64,000 nucleotides of DNA, from positions 8,952 to 72,951 of the forward strand of contig JAEOTC010000154.1 of assembly GCA_016840035.1 (NCBI GenBank), given 5' to 3'. The translations under genes were made by a program, and so were the position numbers. The notes beneath the pieces are model-generated. The model was not told the origin of the DNA. It did not search any database and worked only from the letters and a program-made list of their open reading frames with translations. Positions 25,701 through 34,043 of the stretch are shown here, piece by piece. This DNA is from Candidatus Hodarchaeota archaeon (GTDB lineage: Archaea > Asgardarchaeota > Heimdallarchaeia > Hodarchaeales > Hodarchaeaceae). Numbering within the stretch: position 1 is the stretch's first letter; each line of letters begins with the position of its first letter.

Positions 25701-25845
25701 CTTTATTACTTCAATTAGATAGATATGAAGAGATTTCGAAGAATTATCTATATCTATTCCTGAGATTTTCCCCTGAAAACCCCAGGGCTAGTATTGCCGT
25801 ATAATTTGCTAGAATGTGGTGTGTGGGGTTCCTTTTCCCAGAAGT

Positions 25846-25898
25846 AAAGATTAATAAATATACAAAATCTGTATTTAATTACGTAGTATTGGAGTGAT
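25846..25898 (+). promoter_or_regulatory. BRE/TATA-like element and Shine-Dalgarno of the small ORF heading the conjugation operon
   Basis: Purine-rich AAAGA followed by TTAATAAATA (25851-25860); GGAGTGAT at 25891-25898, 5 nt before ATG 25904. Confidence 0.55.
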
Positions 25899-25903
25899 AT
25901 ACA

Positions 25904-26008
25904 ATGCCTCGACCAGTTAAAAGAGTAGACACAGAATCAAAAGAAAAAGCAACGGAAGATGCAGAAAAGAATAAAGACACAGTTCCCATTTCGAAACATT
26001 ATTCTTAA
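25904..26008 (+). CDS. Unannotated 34-aa charged peptide MPRPVKRVDTESKEKATEDAEKNKDTVPISKHYS; candidate modifier/substrate of the downstream JAB-E1-E2-E2 operon
   Basis: Translated by hand (below the ORF-track cutoff); ATG..TAA in frame; strong Shine-Dalgarno; 41 nt upstream of the JAB gene on the same strand. Confidence 0.7.
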   Translation: MPRPVKRVDTESKEKATEDAEKNKDTVPISKHYS

Positions 26009-26049
26009 CTTAGACTTTTATCTATTTTTAATCCACATAGGGGATTTAT

Positions 26050-26991
26050 TTGTTGTATTCGCATCAAGAGGAGTCCATTTTCATCCAAATTGATCAGAAT
26101 ACATATGATGAGATGATTAATGAAGGCCTTCTTTGGCCACAAATTGAAACAGGTGGAATGCTATTCGGGAATATCATCGAAGAGGAACAGAATCTTGTCA
26201 TCAAGATTCAAAGAACTTATATCCCTTCAAGTGAAGATTGCATACGTGAAGCTGCGTATTTTGAAATAGAACCTGAATTTGCAAAAATGATTCTCTCTCA
26301 GGAGAGTCTTAAGTATTTGGGCAACTGGCACAAACATCCTGGATATGGGGGGCCTTCTCAAGGTGATCGAAGGCAAATTCAAGATTTTTTTGGGAATAAT
26401 CCCCATCTAGATTTTGTTTTAACATTTATCCTTAACTTCCATTCCGATGCTTTTATTGAACCTATAATTGAGACATATTTTCGGACAGATGAGAATCTAA
26501 ACTCGGGCCATTCATTTCTAACTCGCTATATCCCTCAAAGCAATCTCATATTCATTCCTTCACAATTAGATGAGCCTAAACCAATAATCCAAACCAGTGG
26601 TATTCCAAATGCATTAATATCTCGAATAAAACAAGAACTTGTAAATCTTTTTGATCATCTTTCTTCCATTGAAGAAATCCAAGAATTTCCTGGGCAAACT
26701 CCCGATGAGAAAGTTATTTCCTTTCCCTATACGGTTTTAATTCAGCAAGAAAAAGTAAACATTTTAATACTGATCTCATTTCCTCCTGAATTTCCTAAAG
26801 GAAAAATATATTTTGATATCTCCTCAGAGGATATGTCTAAAGACATTACATTTAAGACTCATCCAGCAGAGACGTTAACCGATCTAGAACTTGTGAGTCC
26901 ATTCTTAGAAGTGCTTAAATCTGATATCGAGCATGATATCCCAGTGCTATTGGAAAAACCTCTCTGGAGAGTTATGCGAGAGAAACTGTGA
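26050..26991 (+). CDS. JAB/MPN+ (JAMM) metalloprotease fused to a C-terminal RWD/UBC-like domain
   Basis: ETGGMLFG...YLGNWHKHPGYGGPSQGD (E..HxH..S..D intact); C-terminal ILISFPPEFPKG resembles the UBC FPxxYP motif, with no Cys in that domain. Confidence 0.88.
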   Translation: MLYSHQEESIFIQIDQNTYDEMINEGLLWPQIETGGMLFGNIIEEEQNLVIKIQRTYIPSSEDCIREAAYFEIEPEFAKMILSQESLKYLGNWHKHPGYGGPSQGDRRQIQDFFGNNPHLDFVLTFILNFHSDAFIEPIIETYFRTDENLNSGHSFLTRYIPQSNLIFIPSQLDEPKPIIQTSGIPNALISRIKQELVNLFDHLSSIEEIQEFPGQTPDEKVISFPYTVLIQQEKVNILILISFPPEFPKGKIYFDISSEDMSKDITFKTHPAETLTDLELVSPFLEVLKSDIEHDIPVLLEKPLWRVMREKL

Positions 26992-28238
26992 ATAAAATGA
27001 AATTCTTACTTTACCCAGAACTGGAGACTGAATTAGCTAATCTTCCGCTCAAGGAAAAGATTTTTCCATTATTTGGAAGAGTTTTTGATGATTTTACCGT
27101 ATTTCACTTTGTTAGTATAACATCTGATATGAAATCTCTTCGACAAATTGGATATATCTCGAATAGGGAAACTATTACTGATTTTACACTTGATTTTCCA
27201 TTCATTCACCTGATAGTTGATACAAAACGTCTTGAAGTTACGAAGATTGCCATCCATAAGAGTCAAGATGATATTGAAATTATAAGAGAATTTGATATTG
27301 AAAAAGTAGATTTAAACAGATTATTTGTTCGAGTTGATAAAGCAGAAACTCCATTAAATTTACTTCAAACAAAAACTGTAGCTATTATCGGTATGGGGTC
27401 GGGTGGTTCTTTACTCGCTTTATATCTTGCGAAAACGGGAGTTAAGAAATTTATCCTCATCGATGATGATCGTCTTGAGGTTCACAATATCATTCGCCAT
27501 ATCTCTGACCTTTCACACCTCGGGAGATTTAAGACTAAGGTAGTGGAAGAATATATTGGTGCAAGAATACCAGATATTGAAATTCAAACCCTAGAACAAA
27601 AATTCGTGATACATACTCGAAAAGATGCAGAGTTTTTTTTGAATTTACTCTCCGATGTGAATCTGCTAATTGCGGTTTCAGGAGAACACGATGTTAATTT
27701 TGCTATAAATGATTTTGTACACATTAATAACTTAACCTTACCAGTTATTTATGCTGGTACATTTGATGGGGTGAAAGGGGGCTTAATGTTTAAAGTGGAT
27801 CCACGGAAAGATGATATCTGCTATCATTGTGTATATGCCGATTCTTTTGCTTATCCCTTGACAGACAAAGAGTTAAAAAGCGATATTCCGACAACTACTG
27901 AGTTAGAAAAGAAAATTGTTTACGACCGAACCATGCAGGAACAATTAGCACAACCAGGATTGGGATTAGATATTGATAATTTGACGATTTTTCTTTCGAA
28001 ATTCTGCATAGCTACTCTATTAGACGGACAAGAACACGGTTTATACCGTTTTCCTTTTAATTTTTATCTCTGGTATAATAGAAACGTATTCCAACCGGAT
28101 TCAGATGAAATTAAGTTTGAAGGCCTTGAACTTCTCTATTATGAGGACTTAGAGAAAAATGCTGAATGCCCCTTCCATGGAGAGCAGGTTAAAGCAACTT
28201 TGAAGGACAGTGATGAAGGGAACTCCCCCTCATTATAG
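26988..28238 (+). CDS. ThiF/MoeB/E1-family adenylyltransferase with an extra N-terminal domain
   Basis: VAIIGMGSGGS, IDDDRLEVHNIIRH, GRFKT, CYHC...CPFH Zn ligands; 4-nt overlap with the JAB gene. Confidence 0.9.
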   Translation: MNKMKFLLYPELETELANLPLKEKIFPLFGRVFDDFTVFHFVSITSDMKSLRQIGYISNRETITDFTLDFPFIHLIVDTKRLEVTKIAIHKSQDDIEIIREFDIEKVDLNRLFVRVDKAETPLNLLQTKTVAIIGMGSGGSLLALYLAKTGVKKFILIDDDRLEVHNIIRHISDLSHLGRFKTKVVEEYIGARIPDIEIQTLEQKFVIHTRKDAEFFLNLLSDVNLLIAVSGEHDVNFAINDFVHINNLTLPVIYAGTFDGVKGGLMFKVDPRKDDICYHCVYADSFAYPLTDKELKSDIPTTTELEKKIVYDRTMQEQLAQPGLGLDIDNLTIFLSKFCIATLLDGQEHGLYRFPFNFYLWYNRNVFQPDSDEIKFEGLELLYYEDLEKNAECPFHGEQVKATLKDSDEGNSPSL

Positions 28239-28261: not shown

Positions 28262-28696
28262 ATGTCACTTCGTGGGAATTTAATCGATAGGGAAATAGAA
28301 AAATTAAGCAAAATCTTTCCCGACATTCAAAAAAGAGACTTTCTACAACTTAAGAATAAAAATAAGTGTGTTCAGGTTAGTTTTCTCACAACTGGGAAAT
28401 ATGCATGTGGGCATTTTGATGTTCTCATTGAGTTCCCATACAATTATCCAGTTGGTTCACCACTCGTCTGGGTTCAAAAACCCAAAATTCCTAAGAATAC
28501 TCCACATGTATACGGGTGGGATAAAGAGGGACACGCAAGTATTTGTTATCTCCGACCTAAGAAAGACTGGCGTTTAAACTATAGCTCATATGAAACGGCA
28601 CTGATGGTAGAAATTTGGCTTAAAACTTATTGTAGATGGACTAAAACTAATGTTTGGGATTGGCCAGAAGCAGGGGTACTTGATCATATATTTTGA
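28262..28696 (+). CDS. Ubiquitin-conjugating E2 (UBC-fold) protein, paralogue 1
   Basis: Y..G.F.VLIEFPYNYP..P.VW; PHVY in place of HPN; ICYL (Cys95); downstream Trp. Confidence 0.85.
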   Translation: MSLRGNLIDREIEKLSKIFPDIQKRDFLQLKNKNKCVQVSFLTTGKYACGHFDVLIEFPYNYPVGSPLVWVQKPKIPKNTPHVYGWDKEGHASICYLRPKKDWRLNYSSYETALMVEIWLKTYCRWTKTNVWDWPEAGVLDHIF

Positions 28697-28708: not shown

Positions 28709-29122
28709 ATGAATTTAATGAGACGAACCGTCGAAAACGAATTACATGAATTAAAGGGTGTATTTCCAGGTTTAACACGTAAGGATTTCTATTATTTAGA
28801 CAATGGAAATATTGCGGTTCAAGTCAAGTATGCAACAACTGGACAGTACGCCCACGGTACATTCACCGTGCTCATTGAATTTCCCCATAATTATCCGAAC
28901 GCTCCTCCGCGAGCATGGATTATGGAACCAAATATTTCAAGTCGTACACACCACATATACGGTCGGGATGAATACGGACATACTGAAATCTGTTATCTTC
29001 GTCCTCAGAAAGACTGGCACTTCACATTTACCTCTTATGATGCTGCAATCATGATTCAGACTTGGATTTGGGCTTATTGTCGATGGCGTAAGGTTGGTAT
29101 TTGGGATTGGAAGGAAGCCTAG
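28709..29122 (+). CDS. Ubiquitin-conjugating E2 (UBC-fold) protein, paralogue 2
   Basis: VLIEFPHNYPNAPP, HHIY, ICYL (Cys95); gap-free alignment to paralogue 1. Confidence 0.85.
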   Translation: MNLMRRTVENELHELKGVFPGLTRKDFYYLDNGNIAVQVKYATTGQYAHGTFTVLIEFPHNYPNAPPRAWIMEPNISSRTHHIYGRDEYGHTEICYLRPQKDWHFTFTSYDAAIMIQTWIWAYCRWRKVGIWDWKEA

Positions 29123-29260: not shown

Positions 29261-30118
29261 TTGCTGATGAAGGAAAAACGTAAATTCGGAAAAATTATGA
29301 CTACTACGATATTTCTTTTCTTAATTTTCAATGTGATTTATTCTCATCAAGTTGGTGCTTTCGATGCTTCTCATTTTCAAATTGGAATTAATATTGGTGA
29401 CACCCATACTTTGGAAATTTACTATATGTACGCTCCAGACTCCCCATTAGAAAGCGGAGCAAAAATGTACTACAATGTCACTAATATTACTGTGGATACC
29501 TGTTATATTACAGAAACCATATTTTTTGCTAATGGTTCTTTATACCAGATACAAGACTATAATGATTCTCGAAGTGCTATTAATATGCCATTTTTCTATA
29601 CCACTATCAATGTTAGTCTTCTATATGAGAACTTTATGGCACCTGATTATTTTGTCTCAGTTGATTCAGAATTTATTTACATAGAACAATATACTAATTC
29701 ATCTGGACTCGTAACTGATGGAATTTATACTTTTCATGCAGCGACAGGATGGCTATATTCCTATGTAATGACAATGACCAACGATGGGACTCTCATGATG
29801 GAGATAGATATGAGAGATATCAACTATGATGAACCAGTAACCACAACTACAATACCGTTTACAACGACTACTGACCCAGAAACCTCAACTGAATATTCAA
29901 CATCAACAACTGAATATCCGACAACAACAGTCGAGGAAACAACCACTAGTGATGCTGAGACAACAGAAGAACCCACATCTGACGATTCAGATACAACCAG
30001 TGAGGAGAAAACCACATCTTTACCCACTACAATCCCAAGTATAAGTCCAAGTTCAGGAATTGTCAGCCTAGTAGTCATTGGAATCTTAGGTTTTGTTAAT
30101 AGAAGAAAGAGAGGATAA
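29261..30118 (+). CDS. Secreted surface protein with Thr/Ser/Glu-rich stalk and C-terminal anchor
   Basis: Signal peptide, TTT-rich linker, TM helix plus RRKR. Confidence 0.8.
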   Translation: MLMKEKRKFGKIMTTTIFLFLIFNVIYSHQVGAFDASHFQIGINIGDTHTLEIYYMYAPDSPLESGAKMYYNVTNITVDTCYITETIFFANGSLYQIQDYNDSRSAINMPFFYTTINVSLLYENFMAPDYFVSVDSEFIYIEQYTNSSGLVTDGIYTFHAATGWLYSYVMTMTNDGTLMMEIDMRDINYDEPVTTTTIPFTTTTDPETSTEYSTSTTEYPTTTVEETTTSDAETTEEPTSDDSDTTSEEKTTSLPTTIPSISPSSGIVSLVVIGILGFVNRRKRG

Positions 30119-30304
30119 ATAATTATCAAGTCTGCGTAGAAACCCAATCTATCCAGTCTTTTTTCTTATTTCTTTTTAAATCTAATTTTATTGAATATTG
30201 TATTTGAGAATTTCTCCCATTTTCTCCCTTTTTCATCAATGCATCGGCCGAAATCCTATAAATGTACTATCAGTAAACGCCTAATATAGGAGGATCCTAC
30301 GCTA

Positions 30305-31264
30305 ATGAATATCCAAGAAGCTGTTGAAGCTTGTGATTCAATTTTAACCGAGATTAAGAAATTTATTATCGGGAAAGATGATGTTTTAAAGCATGTTATG
30401 TTGTGTTTACTCGCAGATGGTCATATTCTATTTGAAGATTATCCAGGATTAGCTAAAACAATGATTTCTAGATCATTTGCTTCTGTTCTTGGATGTGACT
30501 TTAATAGAATCCAATTCACCCCAGATCTACTCCCTGCTGATCTTACTGGATCTGAAATTTACAATCAAAAATCAAACGACTTTGAATTTAAACCAGGTCC
30601 CTTGTTCGCTGATATTATATTAGCAGATGAAATTAATCGCGCTACTCCTAAGACTCAAAGTGCCCTATTAGAAGCAATGGGAGAATATCAAGTTTCTATT
30701 GGTGGTAAGACATATGAACTGATCAGCACGGAAAAACCATTTTTAGTAATCGCAACGCAAAATCCACTAGAGTTAGAGGGAACTTTTGCTCTTCCTGAGG
30801 CTCAAGTTGATCGATTTCTAGCTAAAGTCAGAGTAGGCTATCCTTCCAAATCAGACGAGGCAAAAATCCTTACTAATAGAATAAATCGGAAACAAAAGTT
30901 ATTTTCATTACCACAAATTATAACGAAGAAAACCTTTCGAGAAATGCAGAAAGCAGTTGAGATTATTTCCGTATCTGATGAATTGAAGGATTATATTGTT
31001 GATATCGTTAATTATACTCGACACGCTCCACAAGTTCGAGTAGGAGCTTCTCCAAGAGGATCTCTAGATCTAATGTCTTTAGCACGTGCAAACGCGTTAC
31101 TAGATGGTCGTGACTACGTTATACCGCAGGATGTTAAAGAGTTAGCTTCGCTCACATTATCTCATAGAATTATTTTGGATGTTGGATCTTATATCGCAGG
31201 TGCATCGTCTGAAGAGATAATTACAAGGATTTTAACGAAAGTTAAGGCTCCTAGGAAAGAATAA
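30305..31264 (+). CDS. moxR: MoxR-family AAA+ ATPase
   Basis: EDYPGLAKT, RIQFTPDLLPAD, ADEINRA, ATQNP, LPEAQVDRF, GASPR. Confidence 0.95.
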   Translation: MNIQEAVEACDSILTEIKKFIIGKDDVLKHVMLCLLADGHILFEDYPGLAKTMISRSFASVLGCDFNRIQFTPDLLPADLTGSEIYNQKSNDFEFKPGPLFADIILADEINRATPKTQSALLEAMGEYQVSIGGKTYELISTEKPFLVIATQNPLELEGTFALPEAQVDRFLAKVRVGYPSKSDEAKILTNRINRKQKLFSLPQIITKKTFREMQKAVEIISVSDELKDYIVDIVNYTRHAPQVRVGASPRGSLDLMSLARANALLDGRDYVIPQDVKELASLTLSHRIILDVGSYIAGASSEEIITRILTKVKAPRKE

Positions 31265-31266
31265 GG

Positions 31267-32151
31267 TTGATTTCGAAAAGGATTAACCCCCTAAAACGAA
31301 AAGAGATTATTCTCATCGTATTCTTACTCTTTAGTTTAGCGATATTTCAAATTACAATGGAATTAATTCATGGGAGAAGACAGGAAAGTCCAATCTTGAG
31401 GGTAAATTTTCCTTTTTTCGAATTATTTGCAATAGCGATTCCACTTTTCCTTTTGATTTGGATTCTCTTCAAGCTAGAGTTTCCTTTCCGTATATTTAAG
31501 CCCCTTTCAATTTGGGCTGTCTCGATGTTACTTATAATTGTTGTGACTTCATTTCTAACCAATGCTAATTATTCCCCAGGAAATTTTAATCCTGGTAACA
31601 CAACTACTATCGATACTACAATGATACCGCAGACCCTAACCAACCCCGAAACTGTCCTAACAGAATCCATTCCAGAACATATTGTACGGGATCCTCTTTT
31701 TAATTTGCCAGTTTTGCAGGATGTCCGGAATTTGTTACTTGTTTTTCTTATTCTAATATCTACTATCATAATTATTCGAACAGAAAGGAGAAAATCTATT
31801 AAGCAGTCTAAAGAGTCAGAGTCGGCCGAAAACGGTCAAAAGATACCCAAGGAGTTTGAAGGAGGACTAAAAAATATAATTGAATGCTATTATCAGACTT
31901 CGGATCACTTAGAAGGTCAGGGCGCGGATGATTCAGATCATTTAACTCCAAAAGAATTTCAGAACGATGTAAGTATTAGGCAATTAACTTCTGAAAATGA
32001 CTTCAATGATCTAACAAGCCTTTTTAATGAGGCTAAATTTTCAGAACATGATATTTCAGCGGATTCAGTCCAAAGAGCTAAATTTCTCTCCCAGAAAATC
32101 ATCTTTCAATCTTCTCACACAGAATTTGAACGAATGGAGGAAGAAGAATGA
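31267..32151 (+). CDS. Membrane protein with DUF4129-like C-terminal domain
   Basis: TM helices; TPKEF...LTSLFNEAKFS motif; in the MoxR operon. Confidence 0.75.
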   Translation: MISKRINPLKRKEIILIVFLLFSLAIFQITMELIHGRRQESPILRVNFPFFELFAIAIPLFLLIWILFKLEFPFRIFKPLSIWAVSMLLIIVVTSFLTNANYSPGNFNPGNTTTIDTTMIPQTLTNPETVLTESIPEHIVRDPLFNLPVLQDVRNLLLVFLILISTIIIIRTERRKSIKQSKESESAENGQKIPKEFEGGLKNIIECYYQTSDHLEGQGADDSDHLTPKEFQNDVSIRQLTSENDFNDLTSLFNEAKFSEHDISADSVQRAKFLSQKIIFQSSHTEFERMEEEE

Positions 32152-32747
32152 CTTTAGTAGATGAACTTCTTAAATATCTGTTCTCATTCAATTTTTATAT
32201 TTTTTTATGGATCCTATTAGTTATTCTGACCTTCTTTCTTCTAAGAAGGCTTCTTAGTGATTATAAACATAAAAAGATGGTTGAAAATTCAAGAAAACTT
32301 TTTGAATCTGAAAATCCCGATATGAGACTATCTGAAATCCAGTTTTATTTAGAGAGAGAAAACAATTTATTGGAAGAACGCTTTAAAAAGGGCAAAACAG
32401 AACTGAAAGATGATTCAGCAAAAAATAGTTTGTTGTTTCGAAGAATGTTTAGCCTCACAAACTCCCAAACTCCTAAGAGAGAGTTTGTTTTCCTATTAGC
32501 CTCTGAAATGAATAAAGTACGGAAAAGAAAAGAATTTTTGACTGATTCTCTAAGCTATGAGCTTAGTACATTTATTGATAATCCTGAAGACTGGGCTGAA
32601 CGTTTTATTATCTTTACGCCTGACAAAAACCAACAAATCGCACAAAACCTCAAAGTCAGGGAGCTATTGCATGAATATCTGCATGAATTCATTGAAGTTA
32701 TGCAAATCCCCGAATTAAAGTTCTTTTCACTATTAAAACAGTCGTGA
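32148..32747 (+). CDS. Hypothetical membrane-anchored protein (MoxR operon)
   Basis: N-terminal TM helix; overlaps the upstream gene by 4 nt. Confidence 0.65.
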   Translation: MTLVDELLKYLFSFNFYIFLWILLVILTFFLLRRLLSDYKHKKMVENSRKLFESENPDMRLSEIQFYLERENNLLEERFKKGKTELKDDSAKNSLLFRRMFSLTNSQTPKREFVFLLASEMNKVRKRKEFLTDSLSYELSTFIDNPEDWAERFIIFTPDKNQQIAQNLKVRELLHEYLHEFIEVMQIPELKFFSLLKQS

Positions 32748-32756
32748 GATCATTCC

Positions 32757-34043
32757 ATGAACAATTACAAACAGATTTTATTCTTAACAACATCGTTACT
32801 AATAATAATTCTGCTTTCTTTGTTAACAGGAGTATCTGCTTTGACGGGAATCGCTTTACCAGTTTTATGTTATATTTTCTTCTTTCTACTGACTGAAGAA
32901 GTGGATATTGAACCGATCAAAGTATCAAGAATAATTTCATCTGATCGGGGTACTATAGGAGAAGAGATTGAAGTAACTTTAGTTATCAATAATACCGGGT
33001 CTGCTATCCCTCTTCTTGAGATTGTAGATTTAATTGATGATAAATGCACCATTTCTGCCGGTAGTAATCATTTGCAGGTTCAAATAGAGAAGAACCAGAC
33101 TATTGAGCGGAAATATTCATTGAAACTCCACCATAGGGGGAGGTACAAGCTGGGCCCTATCTTTCTAAAGGGAAGTGATCTTTTCGACAAAAAAACCAGT
33201 TACAGAGGAATCGATTTGGTTCAAGAAGTCACGTGTGTTCCTACTTTTATAAAACTTCAAACCCTCCCCATCTCGCGTGAGAAATTAGTTCCTCTGGGTG
33301 GATCAATTCCTTCGCGGATCTATAAAGGAAGAGATTTTGAATTTCAAGGAATTCGTCCGTATCAACCCAGTGATGAATTACGTTCAATTAATTGGAGGGT
33401 CACTGCAAAATATAATACATTAGCCACAAATGAGTATGCTCTAAATCAACAATCCCATATCACCATATTACTTGATCACACCCTGTCAACAGAACATCTA
33501 CTAGAAGTTTCAATAAAAGCAACACTTTCTATCGCAGAGTGGGGAATTCGACAGAGATCAAAAGTTGAACTGATTGCAATTGGAGATTATGTTATGTATC
33601 TTAAACCATCTGCGGATAAACGACAACTTCTATTAATTACTGAACGTTTGATTGATCTAGAGGCAATTTCTCCCCAATCAAAAGAGATATTAGAAGCCCG
33701 GATCAAAAACCGTGTTTATCACCGTCTGAATCATCCAGGAATGCTCTTCATAATCTCTCCCCTTTTAGATAAGACAATCAATGCATCTTGTAAAAAGATT
33801 ATAGAGTCACGAAATCGGGTAGTATGGGTCAACCCAACTCTCGATCGTGAATATGAACATATAAATTTGAAGAAATTATCCAAAAACCTCTCAAAGGAAA
33901 GAATTGAGGGATTTACGAATGTTCTTACTACACTTGTGAAAGTTAATACGATCTTTGATTTTGAAAAAGTCCCTAGATTCAATTGGTATCCAGAAGGCCC
34001 TGATTATGCGTCCTTGGGATCTCTGAAAAAGGTGAGCGTTTAA
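32757..34043 (+). CDS. DUF58 family (vWA-like) protein
   Basis: RGRYKLGP, EFQGIRPYQPSDELRSINWRVTAK. Confidence 0.88.
   Translation: MNNYKQILFLTTSLLIIILLSLLTGVSALTGIALPVLCYIFFFLLTEEVDIEPIKVSRIISSDRGTIGEEIEVTLVINNTGSAIPLLEIVDLIDDKCTISAGSNHLQVQIEKNQTIERKYSLKLHHRGRYKLGPIFLKGSDLFDKKTSYRGIDLVQEVTCVPTFIKLQTLPISREKLVPLGGSIPSRIYKGRDFEFQGIRPYQPSDELRSINWRVTAKYNTLATNEYALNQQSHITILLDHTLSTEHLLEVSIKATLSIAEWGIRQRSKVELIAIGDYVMYLKPSADKRQLLLITERLIDLEAISPQSKEILEARIKNRVYHRLNHPGMLFIISPLLDKTINASCKKIIESRNRVVWVNPTLDREYEHINLKKLSKNLSKERIEGFTNVLTTLVKVNTIFDFEKVPRFNWYPEGPDYASLGSLKKVSV

Follow-up and report, generated by a model that had tools for sequence, protein, structure and literature searches.

The window analysed here, a stretch of 64,000 nt in full, comes from an Asgard archaeon of the Hodarchaeales, a group sampled as metagenome-assembled genomes (MAGs), the one that carries the window being 4.3 Mb in size and 87%-complete. 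It holds a compact cassette of genes in the order peptide, JAB-RWD, E1, E2a and E2b, all on the same (+) strand and set apart by gaps of 41, -4, 23 and 12 nt, with a divergently oriented oxidoreductase gene upstream. The first gene (25904..26008) begins with an ATG at 25904 and runs for 34 codons to a TAA stop (26006-26008). The conserved core of its product comprises residues 1-33 and ends in K-H-Y, residue 34 (Ser) being a variable tail. Public gene callers do predict this gene, without a name or as a 'hypothetical protein', and a full-text literature search found no description of either the peptide or the cassette. On the 3' side of the cassette, window positions 29261-34043 encode a signal-anchored protein that has a Thr-rich linker as well as a membrane anchor at its C-terminus, followed by a MoxR AAA+ operon; since the flanking genes are common to the three closest relatives only, we place this region outside the cassette.

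The second gene (26050..26991) encodes a protein of 313 residues, in which a JAB/JAMM metalloprotease domain (~1-175; Pfam Prok-JAB, PADLOC JAB) is joined to a C-terminal RWD/UBC-like domain without the cysteine (~185-313). The JAMM residues E33, H94, H96, S103 and D106 are invariant. The top structural match of the predicted model (pLDDT 81) is Cap3 bound to a CD-NTase (9ild_A; Z 14.8, rmsd 2.4, 136 residues aligned), and the model also matches Rpn11 and the archaeal JAMM1 protein PfJAMM1, the top matches lying at Z 14-15. The C-terminal domain follows the alpha-beta4-alpha-alpha order of RWD/UBC-like folds and bears an F-P-P-E-F-P motif; in structure searches it resembles small alpha/beta folds, albeit weakly (Z 6-7). 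This Cys-less domain could act as a reader of the peptide.

The third gene (26988..28238; Pfam ThiF) encodes an E1-like adenylating enzyme of 416 residues, with a beta-rich N-terminal domain (~1-107) ahead of the ThiF/E1 domain. Its best HMM matches are 'E1-E2' models of CBASS Cap2 (up to 90.7 bits), and its fold matches SUMO E1, UBA5, MoeB, Atg7 and BubCD at Z 22-24, MccB structures being found as well. The GxGxxG motif, R170, K182 and the Zn ligands C278, C281, C394 and H397 are invariant. No catalytic cysteine is conserved in the crossover loop, the sole invariant or near-invariant cysteines among 64 E1s being the Zn ligands C278, C281 and C394. The last two genes encode UBC-fold E2 proteins: E2a (28262..28696, 144 residues; PADLOC E2, weak UQ_con/RWD matches), with a His and a catalytic Cys, and its paralogue E2b (28709..29122, 137 residues; recognised by PADLOC and by alignment), which is about 50% identical to E2a and has the same His and Cys. 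E2a orthologues carry the Pfam family PF26395 (E2-CBASS), and the His and the Cys of the 'ICY' motif are invariant in 31 of the 31 E2s aligned. Given that the JAMM site, the nucleotide-binding and Arg/Lys residues of the E1 and the His/Cys pair of the E2s are all conserved, the enzymes of the cassette look active by sequence. A hidden beta-grasp domain was seen neither in the JAB protein, whose C-terminus has the weak matches described above, nor in the E1, where the fold of the N-terminal domain is masked in structure searches by the adenylation domain.

Upstream of the peptide gene, a promoter-like, BRE/TATA-like box (25845..25860, +) lies about 45-60 nt before the ATG. Its 15-nt core TAAAGATTAATAAAT (25845-25859) is almost unchanged in 11 congeneric loci, where the intergenic DNA around it is unalignable, and it is found in most metagenome loci too; the element TTAATAAATA lies within it at 25851-25860. 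Near-invariance of the box was observed between species whose synonymous sites are saturated. A general genome motif was rejected as an explanation because the 4.3-Mb genome holds a single exact copy, and copies with one mismatch occur at control level. The box is best described as a putative promoter, BRE/TATA-like in sequence, and possibly doubles as a regulator site. A Shine-Dalgarno-like GGAG(TGAT) element, GGAGTGAT (25891..25898, +), ends 5 nt before the ATG (5-9 nt ahead of the start codon for the element with its GGAG), and this GGAG is invariant in 11 of 11 aligned loci and kept in 8 of 9 metagenome loci. The peptide stop is separated from the JAB start by a T-rich spacer of 41 nt (26009..26049, +) with a T4 tract at 26016-26019 and a T5 tract at 26025-29. 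An earlier note made from the DNA letters had described such elements (a short sequence 5 nt before the ATG, a TATA-like sequence upstream and T-tracts after the stop), and each is present where it had been placed. Its suggestion that, owing to the T-tracts, the peptide could outnumber the enzymes finds no support as a general feature: in relatives, the spacer is pyrimidine-rich and unalignable, and neither it nor its T-runs are conserved. A T-tract attenuator was therefore rejected as a family feature, as 3 of the 11 close loci contain no run of four or more T, and as the gap between peptide and JAB genes in distant cassettes, where the spacer is very short or missing, shrinks to 7-32 nt or gives way to an overlap.

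All 11 congeneric loci that include upstream DNA have the small frame unbroken, its product being 85-100% identical in amino-acid sequence, whereas the E1 encoded next to it retains merely 54-70% identity. Among the 33 codons aligned, variable columns number 8, 4 and 30 at codon positions 1, 2 and 3, and with a mean dN of 0.05 and a saturated dS, dN/dS comes to about 0.03 (pairwise 0-0.12). In two orthologues, TTG replaces ATG at the same start codon. As an antisense frame has its wobble positions in common with the sense frame, the other frames matter here: on both strands, none is open throughout the orthologues of the peptide locus, and an antisense or alternative-frame gene was rejected because most orthologues have stops in every other frame. 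The codon-position pattern likewise led us to reject a conserved RNA or DNA element at this place. Taken together, the intact frames, the third-position variation, the saturated dS and the conserved Shine-Dalgarno and start identify the ORF, as far as comparison of sequences reaches, as a protein-coding gene under very strong purifying selection. This is also the outcome of the check that the earlier note had proposed for its ORF, namely codon-level conservation in related genomes, the close loci containing neither stops nor frameshifts. By the same token, we regard it as hardly credible that the ORF is a translated leader (uORF) controlling the enzyme genes, or a conserved nucleic acid element: being the first cistron of the operon and, in the window, preceding a T-rich spacer would suit that role, but the codon-level pattern (third-position substitutions, saturated dS) already effectively refutes it, amino-acid motifs persist across cassettes with unrelated DNA, the spacer is unconserved and no other frame is open.

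The peptide gene is inherited together with its enzyme genes. E1 orthologues (54-71% identity) are present in 13 of 21 same-genus genomes and in none of 19 genomes from other genera of the class. Among the 14 same-genus genomes with an E1 orthologue, the peptide profile finds exactly one copy in 12, and in the remaining two (G015, G018) the contig stops short of the peptide position; it finds no copy in the eight congeners without the E1, nor in the 19 genomes of other genera. In every uncut locus, from genomes and metagenomes alike, peptide, JAB, E1, E2a and E2b are colinear, and the flanks differ. Across this set of loci, identity to the window amounts to 79-100% for the peptide, 70-97% for E2b, 62-89% for E2a, 53-70% for the E1 and 43-67% for the JAB protein, making the peptide the best-conserved of the five cassette products. 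The claim that the ORF is genuine, looks translated and belongs to a JAB-E1-E2-E2 operon is borne out. Like a ubiquitin-like modifier, the peptide is thus encoded and inherited together with an E1, E2s and a candidate deconjugating enzyme (DUB). The conserved cassette contains no genes for beta-grasp, CD-NTase or RING proteins, and it has no conserved transporter, immunity or other tailoring gene beside it.

Gene neighbourhood and conservation would suit a regulator of the enzymes, or a peptide that they modify, just as well as a tag. An obligate small subunit, in non-covalent contact with the E1, with an E2 or with the JAB-RWD protein and acting as an inhibitor, activator or specificity factor, would likewise account for the strict co-occurrence and the extreme conservation, with the true modifier or substrate being a protein encoded elsewhere, like the CD-NTase of CBASS. 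In favour of such a role, the aromatic C-terminus of the peptide is atypical for an E1 substrate and the E1 has no catalytic cysteine. We nevertheless consider it unlikely, as across clades the cassette comes without any further conserved gene and as the ubiquitin-fold genes of the genome adjoin other E1s. Two further E1-like genes in the same genome each lie directly beside a ubiquitin-family ORF (G000:C184:74250-75070 and G000:C112:100089-100516, with ubiquitin-family matches of 54.9 bits and of 19.6 bits, the latter below the family cut-off), and by their gene content these loci are separate, conventional Ub-type systems.

The family extends well beyond the genus. For more distant relatives of the E1 (34-47% identity), the contigs of origin were inspected, and each again has a small gene straight upstream of a JAB gene, followed by an E1 and one to five E2-CBASS genes. 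Peptide homologues directly before the JAB gene were found at L059, L060, L061, L062, L063, L064 and L065, the L061 gene being absent from existing gene calls, and the L063/L068 peptide ends in His-Trp. Soil Nitrososphaeraceae possess a 54-residue form (L066 2808-2972) that starts with M-P-R, has a longer helix-like middle and reaches T-I-P-N-I-K-H-F before six further residues, its stop overlapping the JAB start by 11 nt. This form is widespread, with one member of a 90%-identity cluster occurring on 73 contigs; a 404-residue 'member' of the Nitrososphaeraceae cluster was discarded as an unrelated membrane protein and a clustering artefact. Further distant cassettes belong to lineages of 46-55% GC. 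Overall, cassette contigs span 27% to 55% GC and their DNA is unrelated, yet the amino-acid motifs persist; with such a range in GC, the family likeness is one at the protein level. When the profile was run against 1.84 billion representative proteins, it retrieved three true small relatives, one of them apparently frameshifted or cut short, and yielded no fused or longer form and no further family, the other match being a spurious repeat protein. Searches of the peptide against Pfam, NCBIfam, PADLOC and the ESM Atlas gave no match.

In an alignment of 20 sequences (A4), M1, P2, P4, D9, D19, A20, P28, H32 and Y33 are invariant, and family-wide the peptide keeps an M-P-x-P N-terminus, two Asp, one Ala, a Pro and a C-terminal His followed by an aromatic residue (Y/W/F). 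The window peptide is composed chiefly of charged or polar residues and contains six Lys. This richness in Lys and the invariant N-terminal M-P-x-P motif would be in keeping with an acceptor, that is, a target or decoy modified at Lys or at the N-terminal Pro, or a bait for a viral protease or ligase. We think such a role improbable: no Lys is strictly conserved across the peptide family, the cassette encodes no donor, and the strongest conservation as well as the placement of the stop codon point to the C-terminus instead.

At this C-terminus, most copies end right at the aromatic residue, with all three stop codons in use, and in a minority the end is extended by 1-6 unrelated residues (S in the window, F, M, RN, GN, HFGE, and the six residues after K-H-F in Nitrososphaeraceae). 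Of the H-Y-S end highlighted in the earlier note, the H-Y part survives as the family-wide His plus aromatic residue, whereas the Ser turns out to be a variable tail of one residue. The remark that the peptide is too small to form a beta-grasp fold and does not end in Gly-Gly also holds: a beta-grasp takes ~70 or more residues and the peptide has 33-34 (54 in one clade), and no Gly is conserved in the family, which ends in H plus Y/W/F rather than in a C-terminal Gly or Gly-Gly. By analogy, a strict end with an optional, unconserved tail is the pattern of ubiquitin-like (Ubl) precursors trimmed by a DUB, and such tail trimming has been shown for BilA and BilC. Similarly, Cap3 cuts exactly after the last CD-NTase residue (bioRxiv 10.1101/2022.03.31.486616). 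For the regulatory subunit considered above, if it were a simple binder, an exact stop after the aromatic residue together with a minority of unrelated tails would be hard to explain. On the other hand, we know of only few exceptions to the rule that E1 substrates end in Gly, namely Ala in some CD-NTases and Asn in the case of MccA, and an aromatic C-terminal residue is to our knowledge unprecedented. Such a residue may be ill-fitting for the tail channel of an E1; if the aromatic residue were P1' (the first removed) and not P1 (the last kept), the activated residue would be His. A proteasome-docking tail of the HbYX type was rejected, as this motif needs a penultimate Tyr and most copies end on Tyr itself.

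Among known systems, the type II CBASS module comes closest with respect to the enzymes. There, Cap2 and Cap3 act on the disordered C-terminal tail of a CD-NTase, which is adenylated and conjugated (bioRxiv 10.1101/2022.03.31.486616). The module corresponds to operon class 6b of Iyer et al. (2006), with Cap2 being an E2-linker-E1 fusion and Cap3 a JAB protein; none of the bacterial E1/E2/JAB operons of classes 6a-6e in that survey has the make-up of the present cassette (PMC1779556). The E1, the JAB protein and the E2s of the cassette score best on Cap2, Cap3-type and CBASS E2/PF26395 models, and in both systems the candidate substrate element is disordered with a conserved extreme C-terminus, rather than a beta-grasp domain. 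The comparison with Cap2 that the earlier note drew is borne out as far as the enzymes go, their nearest relatives being of the Cap2/Cap3 type, which acts on a disordered tail. Several differences set the cassette apart. Its Cap2-type E1 and E2 are unfused, the putative substrate is encoded by a gene of its own and has 33 residues, the E2 comes as two paralogues, the JAB protein is fused to a Cys-less RWD-like domain, the hosts are archaea, the end is His-aromatic and not Gly, and the E1 lacks the catalytic cysteine of Cap2 (C548). Besides, the conserved cassette contains neither a CD-NTase or other nucleotidyltransferase nor an effector at any locus.

With the Bil (BilABCD), Bub and Caldiarchaeum/Asgard ubiquitin operons, the cassette shares the arrangement of a candidate modifier, an E1, an E2 and a deconjugating protease in one operon. 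Those operons encode a Ubl, an E1, an E2 and a JAB or other DUB, the DUB pre-processes a modifier that may bear a C-terminal extension, and in Bub an E1 without the catalytic cysteine still drives conjugation (PMC10557695, PMC11601596, PMC5654768, PMC6043591). The modifiers of those operons are, however, beta-grasp proteins ending in Gly, for which a 33-residue peptide is too small. A disordered tag need not have a fold at all, as illustrated by Pup of the Actinobacteria, which has 64 residues, a GGQ/GGE end and is ligated via the side chain of its Glu by the glutamine-synthetase-like PafA/Dop enzymes. The description of the peptide as 'Pup-like' is apt as an analogy, since both are small and intrinsically unfolded, and fails beyond that: the cassette consists of JAB, E1 and E2 without PafA/Dop, the peptide ends in H-Y and not in GGQ/GGE, and searches of Pfam and NCBIfam gave no sign of sequence similarity between the two.

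A last comparison concerns MccB-MccA and PaaA, in which an E1-fold enzyme recognises the C-terminus of a short encoded peptide that, likewise, does not end in Gly. MccB and PaaA systems are not known to have an E2 or a JAB and include genes for export and immunity; MccA consists of seven residues, the last being Asn. If the cassette worked in this manner, the peptide would be a RiPP-like precursor or signal, modified at its C-terminus by the E1, processed by the JAB protein and released as a small product. MccB does appear among the fold matches of the E1, the peptide is short with conserved ends, and the additional N-terminal domain of the E1 could hold it. Yet that domain, whose fold is masked in structure searches, is predicted to be beta-rich and not a winged-helix RRE, it is the entire peptide that is conserved and not a core alone, and the cassette departs from the MccB/PaaA type in having E2s and no conserved export, immunity or tailoring gene. 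E2s with catalytic His and Cys are always present, in one to five genes, and we know of no place for E2s in MccB- or PaaA-type pathways. The MccB-like alternative offered in the earlier note is weakened by the constant Cys-bearing E2s and the missing conserved export and immunity genes, and we rate it improbable.

This leads us back to a modifier role. We propose that the ~33-residue unfolded peptide is the modifier, or tag, of the adjacent E1/E2/JAB set, taking the place of ubiquitin, a reading that the comparative evidence leaves evenly poised. Several observations argue for it: the enzyme set comes without a modifier gene and the peptide is the sole other constant member of the cassette; the peptide is more conserved than the enzymes, with conservation and stop placement centred on the C-terminus; and the nearest enzyme family is known to activate a disordered tail. 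Ubiquitin, too, is better conserved than its enzymes. Against the tag stands that no classical E1 thioester step is to be expected from the sequence, cysteines outside the Zn site not being conserved, and that the peptide family has no strictly conserved Lys. A complex prediction for two copies of the E1 with ATP, Mg and peptide residues 1-33, based on our own alignments and run without controls, spoke neither for nor against binding (score 0.01, mark 0.32). The modifier role advanced in the earlier note is accordingly the best reading at hand, and one that we infer, given the unprecedented His-aromatic C-terminus for an E1, the missing thioester cysteine and a complex prediction without a verdict. 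As regards the earlier note as a whole, what it observed is confirmed, and its interpretation is supported in part.

In mechanistic terms, the peptide, encoded by the first gene of the cassette, would be expressed from its own conserved putative promoter and ribosome-binding site, and any residues past the His-aromatic end (Ser in the window) would be trimmed by the JAB protein. The E1 would then adenylate the exposed C-terminal carboxylate and the activated peptide would be handed to the catalytic cysteine of E2a or E2b. As the E1 has no conserved crossover-loop cysteine, direct transfer from the adenylate to the E2 is possible; alternatively, transfer might proceed via a Ser, Thr or Tyr of the E1, as in Bub systems. 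The peptide would finally be ligated to a target amine, a linkage that the JAB protein might also undo, and the N-terminal M-P-R-P motif and the JAB-fused Cys-less RWD-like domain may serve for recognition. Put in full, our proposal reads that archaea (Hodarchaeales and soil Nitrososphaeraceae) attach a fold-less peptide of ~33 residues, activated at its His-aromatic end, via an E1-E2-JAB cascade, and we rate this just short of an even chance.

If true, this would be ubiquitin-type conjugation without a beta-grasp modifier, a C-terminal Gly or an E1 thioester. In every characterised E1/E2 conjugation system that we know of, a beta-grasp protein serves as the modifier, except in CBASS, where the tail of a large enzyme does so. 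The E1/E2/JAB machinery would thus work without the ubiquitin fold, the substrate range of E1s would be widened to an aromatic or His C-terminus, and the cassette would represent a missing intermediate between peptide-activating E1s such as MccB, the tail-conjugating Cap2 of CBASS and true ubiquitination. The Hodarchaeales are reportedly the nearest relatives of eukaryotes known so far, and a cassette of this kind in an archaeal lineage placed next to eukaryotes bears on the origin of ubiquitin signalling. Moreover, an encoded tag of 33 residues with dedicated writer and eraser enzymes would make a compact tool.

As to the surroundings of the distant cassettes, three to five E2-CBASS paralogues on both strands are arranged around the peptide-JAB-E1 core at L060, L061, L064 and L065, whose neighbours include SIR2, integrase, IS240-type transposase, VWA and PP2C genes. 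A TIR-NACHT gene is found in the vicinity of L062, and HEPN/MNT and Hcp genes in that of L059. The patchy distribution within the genus, the changing flanks, such neighbours (SIR2, TIR-NACHT, HEPN/MNT, integrase, IS elements) and the CBASS-type enzyme families hint at the cassette being an accessory conflict or defence module. In a Chloroflexi MAG (L046, 66% GC), we found a looser, bacterial relative of the cassette but, ahead of its JAB gene, no ORF of the M-P-x-P...H-Y type. This locus encodes a JAB-RWD protein containing a TM segment, another RWD-like membrane protein, one E2 and an E1 of 30% identity, and is followed by a gene for a large P-loop protein.
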